Origin: Pseudomonas phage pf8_ST274-AUS411
Reading direction: 5' to 3' (one strand)
Sequence record: MN710383.1
Length of the DNA: 10,061 nucleotides
Part shown: positions 1 through 1,692 of the stretch, piece by piece
Numbering within the stretch: position 1 is the first letter of the stretch
Layout of the letters: every line of letters begins with the position of its first letter
The notes under the pieces: generated by a model
What the model saw: the letters and a program-made list of their open reading frames with translations, nothing else
The model's database searches: none
Told to the model about the DNA's origin: nothing
Made by a program: the position numbers and the translations under genes

Positions 1-1539
1 CTAGCTTTTGTACCCAGTATTGCAATATGGATGTGTTAGCGTGCCATTCTCCAAGTTAGAAGTACCGCCCTCGCTTCTCCGCACAACATGATCAATAGAA
101 ATAGAATTTCTATGTATATATCCATTGCATATATTACATGTCGGAGCCTTCCTTAGCACCTCCCGAAGGTAGATAGCACTTTTTGCATCCGAGTCGAACT
201 TACCTCCTGCCACTCCGCGTTTATTTGCGGGTTTCTGTAGCGATAAATAACCAAATTCTTGTGTTGCTTGAATTGCTCTTACTATATTATCATTCTGCAA
301 GCTCATTCCCATATTACTCATCACCATCTCGAAAAATTTAGATATATGAGGATGACTAACATGGGCGGTTCGATACTTTCTGTTAATTTGCTGTATCAGA
401 TACTCATAATCTAATAGAAAGCTTTCAAAACGCGGCCTTATTGAAGTGAAGTCATCTAGCTTCCCTTCACGAGATATTCGGTCAGCAAAATCAGTCATTG
501 CTAGAAATGAAGCGCTTTTATGACGACCTTCTTGCGAGTAAAAATAAACTGCAGGATGCAGTCCTAAAGATGAGGGGTAATTGCTATTCAGAAGAGACGA
601 AATTTTTCGCACTCTCTTGAGCACTGAAATCGTGGCGTTACCATCCTCATCATCGAGTGCACTCCCCTTGGATACTATATTAATCATATCAACAATAAGT
701 GGCAGCGTCTGAGCAGAGTATAGCTTTCCTGCAATTGGTAGATCCAAGGTCTTTATAGGAGTCTGAAGCCTTGGGGAGAAAAGTATTTCGTTAATCTCAG
801 CCGCAATTTCTTGAATTTCTATTTGCGCCTCTTTGGAAAATCCAGACCAATATTTATGCCCCTTGCCACTTCTTATTATAGCTCGTGCTGCAATGCTATT
901 TGGTTTTCGGCGATCTTCTAGAAGTTTCAGTTCCGTTTTGTCAATTGGAGCAGCTTGCTGGTTAATTTTGAAGAAAGAGCTCTCTGCTTTCCTAGCGTCA
1001 CCTTCAACCCATTGTAATTGAATAGCGAGAGCCCCTAAATTTTTCGAATGCCTGACTATATCGGGACGAACTTTTTCGGGGTGAGTAAGAGCTAAGCGAA
1101 AATCGCTGTATGCACCCACTGCTTTTTCAATAAGCTTTCTGGTATCTTGTGCAACTCTCAACTGTTCGTCGGGTACGATTCCATCATAGAACAGCTTAGA
1201 TGCCTCACCGTCACCATAATCATTATTGACCCATGCAGCTAGAGCACTTAGCCGATGACTTCCATCGATAACAAACAAATAGCCACCAGCACTTCGCCAG
1301 AGAATAACAGATGGGATTAAATCTCCGGTTATAAAGCTGCGCACTAGTTCCGTAACTTTTTCAGCATCCCACTCATTGGTTTCGCGCTGAAAGTCGGGCT
1401 TTCTGAGATTAGAAAAAAAGAAAGAATCATACTTTATGTCTTCAATTGAAATTGTCTCTTTCTTTTTTCCTGAATTTACAACCTCTTCGATTTCGAAATC
1501 TTCTCTAGAAATCAGTGCGTCAAGATTTACTTTAGCCAT
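1..1539 (-). CDS. Cargo protein with a ParB/Srx-fold N-terminal domain (DUF262/DGQHR-like) and a C-terminal HNH nuclease. It is a candidate stand-alone defence nuclease of the type IV restriction kind.
   Basis: A complete 512-aa ORF: ATG at 1537-1539 (reverse complement) and TAG at 1-3 (reverse complement). A GAGGAG Shine-Dalgarno lies about 10 nt upstream on the minus strand (plus-strand CTCCTC at 1550-1555). Motifs: PDFQRE (QR motif); FVIDGSHRLSA encoded around 1245-1275 (ParB/DUF262 DGQQR/DGQHR-type); C-terminal CNICNG...IDHVVRRSEGGTSNLENGTLTHPYCN (classic HNH with flanking Cys pairs) encoded in about 1-150. The gene is K/I/N/F/Y-rich and AT-rich, in contrast with the GC-rich phage core. 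Confidence 0.75.
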   Translation of the reverse strand: MAKVNLDALISREDFEIEEVVNSGKKKETISIEDIKYDSFFFSNLRKPDFQRETNEWDAEKVTELVRSFITGDLIPSVILWRSAGGYLFVIDGSHRLSALAAWVNNDYGDGEASKLFYDGIVPDEQLRVAQDTRKLIEKAVGAYSDFRLALTHPEKVRPDIVRHSKNLGALAIQLQWVEGDARKAESSFFKINQQAAPIDKTELKLLEDRRKPNSIAARAIIRSGKGHKYWSGFSKEAQIEIQEIAAEINEILFSPRLQTPIKTLDLPIAGKLYSAQTLPLIVDMINIVSKGSALDDEDGNATISVLKRVRKISSLLNSNYPSSLGLHPAVYFYSQEGRHKSASFLAMTDFADRISREGKLDDFTSIRPRFESFLLDYEYLIQQINRKYRTAHVSHPHISKFFEMVMSNMGMSLQNDNIVRAIQATQEFGYLSLQKPANKRGVAGGKFDSDAKSAIYLREVLRKAPTCNICNGYIHRNSISIDHVVRRSEGGTSNLENGTLTHPYCNTGYKS

Positions 1540-1692
1540 CCATGCCTAGCTCCTCAACACAAAGCCACTATAAGCTTAATAATTTCTTTTGCTGCTCCGA
1601 CCTTTAAACTAAATTATTTTATAACCTAGCACCTTTGGTTTGACTCTAATCTCCCCGGGCATACCAACGCCTAGCTACTTCCTGTGTTATCG

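Follow-up and report, generated by a model that had tools for sequence, protein, structure and literature searches.

At one end of the analysed 10,061-nt stretch of Pseudomonas phage pf8_ST274-AUS411 (sequence record MN710383.1; the whole stretch is called the window below), a single AT-rich gene adjoins the repressor gene of a Pf prophage, and the question is what this gene encodes and what it does for the phage and the host that carry it. A preliminary description made from the letters alone had taken it for a cargo gene combining a ParB-like domain with an HNH nuclease, and for a candidate single-gene defence system. Our analysis supports, by inference, the view of the gene as a single-gene defence cargo candidate. 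Its product is probably a stand-alone GmrSD-like nuclease gated by nucleoside triphosphates (NTP), acquired horizontally as cargo of a Pf phage of the tRNA-Sec group and serving in the nuclease-based exclusion of foreign DNA. The narrower claim, that this activity depends on DNA modification, is tentative and less well assured than the general one.

Domain composition and placement of the cargo gene

The cargo gene is an undisrupted open reading frame (ORF) for a protein of 512 amino acids (aa), which stands alone at the start of the window. Both domains named in the preliminary description scored above the curated Pfam cut-offs: PF03235 (GmrSD_N/DUF262) in aa 45-204 (E-value 1.4e-11, 45.3 bits against a cut-off of 33.2) and the HNH domain PF01844 in aa 468-509 (E-value 9e-7, 29.4 bits against 21.4). 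The motifs quoted there, that is, the QR motif, FVIDGSHRLSA and the C-terminal Cys-flanked HNH, are likewise all present and conserved. In a diverse family alignment of 91 sequences including representatives of 50% clusters (alignment A2), conservation extends over the segments KPDFQRETNEW (aa 47-57) and FVIDGSHRLSA (aa 89-99), and over the HNH segment C468-x2-C471 ... D483-H484 ... N498 ... H503-x2-C506-N507. Invariant in all 91 members are K47, F50, Q51, R52, W57, D92, G93, H95, R96, F189 and N193 in the N-terminal domain, as well as R219, R368, E372, C468, C471, H484, H503 and C506 further on; D483, N498 and N507 are kept in at least 90% of the members, and the third position of motif II is S or A across the family. 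Two deviations from the published DUF262 motifs QRxxxW, DGxQR and FxxxN (PMC12065111) were seen: motif I has one extra residue (QR-x4-W), and motif II reads DGSHR, its consensus being DGQQR in GmrSD and DGQHR in DndB.

The nuclease motif proved to be a canonical PF01844 domain, as proposed, and could be refined to an H-N-N variant, in which the last metal-binding residue is Asn, with a CCHC zinc site (C468, C471, H503, C506) and the predicted catalytic residues D483-H484...N498...N507. When the family profile was compared with the PDB, it aligned with the Gme HNH nuclease (4h9d), the HNH domain of Cas9 and the HNH domain of a group II intron maturase, that is, with HNH domains only; D483, H484, N498 and N507 fall on the critical residues D53, H54, N68 and N77 of the Gme HNH nickase 4h9d. 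A PDB search with the single sequence found nothing. There was no Pfam match in the protein to DUF1524 (PF07510) at E <= 0.1, to ParBc or to a helix-turn-helix (HTH) domain, and the NCBIfam scan gave nothing above cut-offs. The family has an entry in PHROGs (phrog_29172), labelled function unknown.

An AlphaFold model built from 31 close homologues had an unusable DUF262 core (predicted local distance difference test score, pLDDT, 66.7); the model from the 91-sequence alignment reached a pLDDT of 94.2 and a predicted template modelling score (pTM) of 0.90. It consists of a beta/alpha ParB-like core, a long all-helical region and a C-terminal beta-beta-alpha finger. The helical middle part that had been predicted is present in the model, at ~245 aa (aa 205-449) instead of ~300 aa. 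By analogy with GmrSD-M, SspE-M and NsnA-C, it may be a DNA-binding domain of the 'ParBDB' type (PMC12065111). The modelled fold resembles those of BrxU and SspE: these two, together with ParB/Srx structures, were the nearest solved structures, with modest scores, which agrees with the proposed kinship to GmrSD, SspE and BrxU; Foldseek of the model against the PDB gave no match at E <= 0.001.

The composition of the cargo gene is foreign to the Pf prophage. Its GC content is 41.0% (34% at third codon positions, GC3), and that of the 153-nt spacer between the cargo and repressor genes (1540-1692) is 41.8%; the remaining ~8.4 kb of the window have 61.6% GC, and the Pf genes have a GC3 of 61-76%. 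The low GC reported earlier is therefore confirmed, but the shift does not lie exactly at the 3' end of the repressor gene (1693): both the homology to Pf5 and the GC shift end at ~1656, 37 nt downstream of the repressor stop codon (1693-1695). What lies beyond the cargo gene in the window is the sequence of a Pf prophage, which shares 92-97% identity with Pf5, Pf1 and many PfAC phages. At position 1656 the homology to every phage record ends, and the first 1.65 kb are present in none of the 29 matching Pf phage records. The earlier alternative of a core gene of the lineage with ordinary GC in its relatives does not hold: in every host examined, among them Cupriavidus, P. kribbensis and Calothrix, the family gene has less GC than its surroundings, as it does on most of the viral contigs.

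In longer contigs, the 27-nt att core GGGTTCGACTCCCACTGCCTTCCGCCA is found at the 3' end of the tRNA-Sec gene beside the integrase gene, and a second copy lies 136 nt past the cargo stop codon, just before host genes and outside the window. The sequence is identical to the published att of the Pf-tRNA-Sec group (PMC7549136). As the att copies flank the cargo gene, the gene is inside the excisable element. Other contents were found in the same slot of related phages: a ParA/Soj-like gene, Orf317, in Pf5 (L007 928-1881), an AbiEii-like toxin gene in the Pf-tRNA-Sec phage PfAC13 (L015 249-1760), and two hypothetical genes in WX-TY (L016 5995-7627), a circular genome from culture supernatant. Since the slot is differently filled in these relatives, it is a genuine variable cargo position, carried with the phage genome, and the interval between att and repressor behaves as a cargo hotspot. 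Lying inside the att repeats, missing from related Pf genomes and placed where contents vary, the gene has the properties of an accessory (moron) gene. The earlier assignment to an att-repressor cargo slot holds, with the correction that the left att is outside the window. P. aeruginosa assemblies encode an identical protein in 32 blocks or more, each time at the end of a Pf prophage.

The cargo gene lies downstream of the repressor gene and, as had been noted, in the same orientation, both being on the minus strand; the excisionase gene is divergent from the repressor gene. No terminator was detected in the repressor-to-cargo interval, and transcription of the cargo gene by read-through from the repressor transcript is plausible. 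Between the cargo stop codon and att, outside the window, a perfect hairpin with an 8-bp stem, ACTGGCCA-GTAA-TGGCCAGT (L002 11575-11600), may be a candidate terminator of the cargo gene. The Shine-Dalgarno (SD) sequence GAGGAG that had been credited to the gene is present, but its spacing to the true ATG is 10 nt in the window and 6 nt in the three other isolates aligned (L001, L002 and L006). The difference is due to a 4-nt tandem duplication of ATGG at the start codon, where the window reads ATGGATGGCT and the three isolates read ATGGCT. By the duplication an additional ATG arises upstream, out of frame (M-D-G-stop) and at the optimal distance from the SD sequence; the change may be a mutation lowering the expression of a potentially toxic nuclease.

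Relatives of the cargo protein and comparison with known systems

A word-indexed search yielded ~4,600 homologues. The best 120 of these are full-length (512-520 aa) and about 60-78% identical, and belong to Cupriavidus, Pseudomonas, Variovorax, Rhodanobacter and many cyanobacteria. An exhaustive search of 50% clusters gave 1,091 clusters with an E-value of 1e-3 or below, including 360 with 1e-30 or below, most of them sharing the same length, and at least 578 loci were found when one genome per species was scanned, in Proteobacteria, Cyanobacteria, Bacteroidota, Firmicutes, Planctomycetes, candidate phyla radiation (CPR) bacteria and archaea. Among the matches listed, identity is 50-77% in bacteria and archaea. 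Homologues 53-61% identical were seen in Methanoperedens (61%), Methanosarcinales, Methanobacteriota, Woesearchaeota and Nanoarchaeia (L035, L041, L052, L058, L070). Such conservation across the domains of life is unusually high for a putative defence gene.

Only the ORF itself is conserved. In other hosts, neither the upstream nor the downstream flanking DNA of the homologues could be aligned; no conserved regulatory element moves with the ORF. No conserved partner gene was found among the 142 nearest neighbours of 78 loci, in line with the single-gene system proposed earlier, and none among 84 neighbours in viral contigs. The sole recurring neighbour family, with 5 of the 142 neighbours, represents an orthologous recA locus of Nostoc. 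Gaps to neighbours measure 190-280 nt, and just 13 of the 142 neighbours are co-oriented and within 60 nt. The carriers are diverse: the gene is found in an integrase/MobA island in Cupriavidus, beside a gene for an Mrr-type nuclease in P. kribbensis, in a region with toxin-antitoxin and extracellular contractile injection system (eCIS) genes in Calothrix, and on a conjugative plasmid in Enterobacter. Furthermore, 24 IMG/VR viral contigs carry a family gene, its neighbours including P2-type gpD, ogr and gpA, integrases and CI-type repressors; the homologue of E. coli O103:H2 is placed between gpD and ogr of a P2-like prophage, and the family recurs at accessory loci of P2-like prophages.

Whether this fusion had been described before was left open in the preliminary description; in fact it had been. 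Within what Silas et al. call the 'GmrSD family' (Nat Commun 2025, PMC12373910), cluster CLS_014 includes WP_000146939.1 from E. coli O103:H2 and WP_016495566.1 from Enterobacter pENT01 (Supplementary Dataset 6), and a 2025 survey of the ParB-CTPase fold lists fusions with PF01844 HNH as novel and uncharacterised (PMC12704722). WP_000146939.1 is 41% identical to the Pf protein from end to end (E-value 3e-126), and the two share the length class, motifs, Pfam domains and a place in prophage or plasmid cargo; they differ in subclade, the clade of the Pf protein being 60-78% identical across Proteobacteria and Cyanobacteria, and in the host element, which is here a filamentous phage. When representatives of all 15 GmrSD groups were synthesised, 8 of the 15 restricted T-even phages, a group-level count and not a result for CLS_014 (PMC12373910). 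The architecture is thus not new, being already catalogued, with thousands of database entries annotated "DUF262 / HNH"; what is new is a Pf-borne member of the catalogued ParB-HNH family. Pf accessory-gene surveys (including PMC7549136) do not mention a DUF262-HNH gene, and the known defence cargo of Pf prophages, while likewise located in variable regions, consists of proteins unrelated to this one.

With GmrSD and BrxU the cargo protein shares an N-terminal DUF262 domain of the ParB/Srx fold with the QR, DGxxR and FxxxN motifs, a helical middle region followed by a C-terminal His-Me-finger nuclease, and the encoding by a single gene on mobile elements and prophages. It differs from them in the nuclease, which is a zinc-finger HNH (PF01844) and not DUF1524; this replacement had been recognised correctly from the sequence, as had the smaller size of the protein (512 aa versus 580 and 560 aa for the solved chains of BrxU and SspE, ~60-70 aa shorter). 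It also differs from GmrSD in motif II (DGSHR versus DGQQR) and in the longer motif I. Accordingly, it is not a GmrSD in the strict sense (DUF262 with DUF1524): DUF262 and the ParB/Srx fold were found, DGQQR and DUF1524 were not. In the wide sense of the family (ParB_n with HNH or DUF1524, PMC12373910), both domains are present in one single-gene protein.

Several other assignments were considered. SspE requires the sspABCD modification of host DNA and has a nuclease of a different family; the 25 most frequent of ~200 families for the 142 nearest neighbours include neither an ssp nor a dnd family, and the Pfam families recorded for called genes at the P. aeruginosa loci include none of the ssp or dnd type. 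Identity with DndB/DGQHR (TIGR03187) was rejected, the score being 13 bits against a cut-off of 58.85 and the families listed showing no dnd-type context. The PADLOC profiles closest to the ParB core are Menshen NsnA and PD-T4-2_A, which have DUF262 without DUF1524 and match over ~60 residues. NsnA, however, acts with NsnB and NsnC, the nucleases being supplied in trans, while the cargo protein has no partner genes and contains the nuclease as a fused domain. Membership in Menshen (NsnABC) was rejected as well, since the NsnA match covers only 63 residues, and the partner genes are absent from the window and not conserved among neighbours. Finally, the protein is not a canonical ParB partition protein, as it has no ParBc or HTH match in Pfam and no ParA gene is among the called genes of the prophage.

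The P2-like temperate Burkholderia phage KL3 encodes a homologue, gp44, which is 40% identical over the full length and is carried by a myovirus rather than an inovirus. Its gene is accessory cargo of a prophage hotspot, directly next to an EcoRII-type restriction-modification module (EcoRII-C/Vsr/Dcm) and not far from the portal gene Q (L012 2860-7548). The authors of the KL3 genome annotated gp44 as unknown and described the locus as the site of exclusion genes in other P2-like phages.

Proposed mode of action and competing explanations

The best-supported reading of the mechanism, that of a stand-alone GmrSD-like nuclease, rests on the homology with GmrSD, BrxU and SspE, whose mechanisms are established, and on the context of cargo in a hotspot. 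GmrSD acts on DNA with glucosylated hydroxymethylcytosine (glc-hmC); BrxU acts on modified cytosines and undergoes an NTP-driven dimer-monomer change; in SspE, phosphorothioates are sensed and nicking is switched on by NTP hydrolysis. By analogy, the N-terminal DUF262 domain of the cargo protein would bind and hydrolyse NTP via the clustered motifs QR...W, DGSHR and FxxxN and act as both sensor and switch, and the helical middle domain would bind DNA. An NTP-dependent rearrangement would then license nicking or cutting of foreign DNA by the zinc-stabilised C-terminal HNH domain. DNA of the host and of Pf, being unmodified, would be spared; because it must be, the likeliest target, by the logic of type IV restriction, is DNA with a non-canonical base modification. 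A mild constraint comes from the contexts: with a methylase for CCWGG m5C beside the KL3 homologue, and with dcm present in some Pf phages (PMC7549136), Dcm-type m5C is an unlikely target. In the lysogen, transcription of the gene would probably occur jointly with that of the repressor gene or just downstream of it, and both the host and its resident Pf would then be protected against other phages. From homology and context we infer the NTPase and nuclease activities, the dependence on modification, the expression in the lysogen and the anti-phage phenotype.

Several observations weigh against this reading. PADLOC 2.0, which had been named as a check in the preliminary description, called no known system on the cargo protein and gave only the partial match to NsnA, over 63 residues of the ParB core; throughout the 91 family members the only recurrent matches were to NsnA (91 of 91) and PD-T4-2_A (51 of 91), and the models of GmrSD, BrxU and SspE matched none of them. 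With DGSHR in place of DGQQR and no DUF1524, NTP use and specificity may differ from those of GmrSD. The N-terminal half is unusually conserved across phyla, unlike the diversifying pattern of arms-race sensors. Defence genes, whose presence beside some family members counts in favour, are a minority among the neighbours, those related to systems of the restriction-modification or the toxin-antitoxin kind amounting to four N6_N4 methylases, three TdeIII and three PIN genes out of 142. As to expression, a scan for sigma-70-like promoters found no site for the cargo gene, and translation of the window's own copy is possibly reduced by the ATGG duplication.

A more novel reading, which we regard as unlikely, is that the clade with DGxHR and a CCHC-HNH (~515 aa), whose members from Pseudomonas, cyanobacteria and methanogenic archaea are at least 50-77% identical, forms a functionally distinct class of ParB-NTPase nucleases, with a trigger unlike the marks recognised by GmrSD, BrxU and SspE. 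Possible triggers are, for example, Pseudomonas phage DNA containing hypermodified thymidine or 7-deazaguanine, or an intermediate of replication that occurs universally. If so, the high conservation across domains would reflect a universal target, and a filamentous single-stranded DNA (ssDNA) phage would be making use of portable immunity.

Unlikely, too, is an abortive-infection (Abi) or toxic effector, in which a cue from infection (NTP pools, a phage protein or a DNA structure) would trigger indiscriminate cutting of DNA, that of the host included. High conservation across phyla fits a universal target or cue and not a phage-specific one, and related GmrSD variants are grossly toxic on expression (published supplement); besides, an Abi-type toxin occupies the same slot in PfAC13, and the start-codon duplication could have arisen as a mutation that attenuates the gene. 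On the other hand, the characterised enzymes GmrSD, BrxU and SspE act on DNA marks and not by suicide, no antitoxin-like partner is conserved beside the gene, and many P. aeruginosa assemblies stably retain the identical protein.

The gene could instead be a weapon in the competition among mobile elements and not a defence against lytic phages, the nuclease excluding superinfecting Pf and other inoviruses, plasmids or integrative and conjugative elements (ICEs), in the manner of the fertility inhibitor Osa, a ParB/Srx-fold protein with nuclease and NTPase activity. The range of carriers, from Pf and P2-like prophages to the Cupriavidus island and the Enterobacter plasmid, would agree with this, P. 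aeruginosa often holds several interacting Pf prophages, and L001 (see below) is a Pf-Pf hybrid. Nevertheless, we consider this improbable: the sequence shows no sign that ssDNA or the replicative form of Pf is recognised, and the mechanism overlaps that of the GmrSD-like reading, from which the target alone differs.

It is very improbable that the gene is a selfish HNH gene of a homing or addictive type, of no benefit to host or Pf. Extreme horizontal spread (50-77% identity across bacteria and archaea among the matches listed), GC below the surroundings and a conserved bare ORF with non-conserved flanks are what such a gene would display, but no conserved target gene, intron or intein was found at the insertion, the neighbours are heterogeneous, and homing HNH nucleases, in which HNH is paired with NUMOD, AP2 or HTH modules, do not resemble a protein of 512 aa that has an NTPase switch. 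Least probable of all is a housekeeping role, be it ParB-like partition or maintenance of the Pf episome or, in the manner of SspE or DndB, phosphorothioate-dependent action as an effector or regulator, since, in spite of the ParA/Soj-like gene in the Pf5 slot, a weak match of aa 29-103 to a PHROG family of ParB-like partition proteins and the resemblance of DGxHR to the DGQHR of DndB, the gene is not core, being missing from Pf5, Pf1, Pf4-type and other Pf-tRNA-Sec phages, and it has neither a ParA partner nor ParBc or HTH matches, nor a TIGR03187 score near the cut-off, nor dnd or ssp genes among the frequent neighbour families or in the Pfam content of the P. aeruginosa loci.

Pf prophages shape biofilm formation, virulence and chronic infection in P. 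aeruginosa, and cargo restricting other phages would influence the outcome of phage therapy and the competition between prophages. In swapping unrelated cargo (a ParA-like gene, an AbiEii-like toxin, an HNH nuclease), the att-repressor slot of Pf resembles the defence hotspots of P2 and P4, and such exchange makes it a compact place to seek new immunity genes. The family is small in format, single-gene and very widely transferred, and a function established for it would cover thousands of "DUF262/HNH" proteins; should the enzyme prove to target a DNA modification, it could also find use as a reagent in the detection of modified DNA. Given that the family is widespread and already catalogued, its presence in this slot is a sensible find, not a surprising one.

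Other features of the prophage

Coordinates of the cargo gene, its domains and motifs, and of the neighbouring prophage features are collected in Table 1.

Table 1. Features annotated in the window (positions in nt of the window)
Feature	Position	Strand	Basis and remarks
Cargo gene, 512 aa	1..1539	minus	ORF list, Pfam, homologues, AlphaFold model; stop codon at 1-3
HNH (beta-beta-alpha-Me) nuclease domain, aa 468-509	13..138	minus	Pfam PF01844
All-helical middle region, aa 205-449	193..927	minus	model helices H213-H424; R219, R368, E372 invariant
DUF262 / GmrSD_N (ParB/Srx-fold) domain, aa 45-204	928..1407	minus	Pfam PF03235
Motif III, F189-x3-N193 (FxxxN)	961..975	minus	F189 and N193 invariant
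Motif II, D92-G93-S94-H95-R96 (DGxHR), predicted NTP-binding centre	1252..1266	minus	D92, G93, H95, R96 invariant
Motif I, F50-Q51-R52-x4-W57 (QR...W)	1369..1392	minus	invariant in 91-sequence alignment
ATGG 4-nt tandem duplication at start codon, strain-specific	1540..1543	minus	alignment with L001, L002, L006
AT-rich upstream region, gained along with cargo gene	1544..1655	minus	end of Pf5 homology at 1656; flank not kept in other hosts
Shine-Dalgarno sequence GAGGAG	1550..1555	minus	direct sequence reading
Pf repressor gene, 88 aa	1693..1959	minus	phrog_147 transcriptional regulator, E 5e-24; syntenic PfAC13 gene annotated repressor
XisF5-type excisionase gene, 71 aa, HTH_17	2087..2302	plus	Pfam, PHROG; Pf excisionase classes from PMC7549136
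27-bp att core at tRNA-Sec 3' end	9966..9992	minus	tRNA at 9966-10061

The interval between the repressor and excisionase genes (1985-2075) contains several copies of GGACTATG (one as GACTATG) and a palindrome with a 12-bp stem, TTTGGACTATGT...ACATAGTCCAA; these are probably operator sites of the lysogeny switch. A 19-nt sequence, TGTCGAAGAAGTGTCGAAA, lies within the 3' end of the integrase gene near one att (9879-9897, minus strand; L002 1483-1501 and 11553-11571), and a second copy with 18 of 19 matches was found just past the cargo stop codon near the other att. The two copies are candidate arm-type binding sites of the integrase.

The replication-initiator gene (homologue of PA0727, 7764-8898) has an internal deletion of 164 bp relative to L002, L003, L005 and Pf5, with the junction at 7901/7902 and no microhomology there; the resulting frameshift leads to a stop after codon 46. 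Because of this frameshifting deletion the prophage copy is probably replication-defective, with the cargo gene retained. From its sequence, the copy in the window looks degraded at two places, the start codon of the cargo gene and the replication-initiator gene.

L001 (1-21539) is a hybrid, one end of which carries tRNA-Gly(CCC) and a 334-aa integrase of another Pf type; at the other end are the cargo gene and, from the tRNA-Sec side, the host flank. This arrangement suggests that L001 arose by recombination or inversion between two resident Pf prophages.

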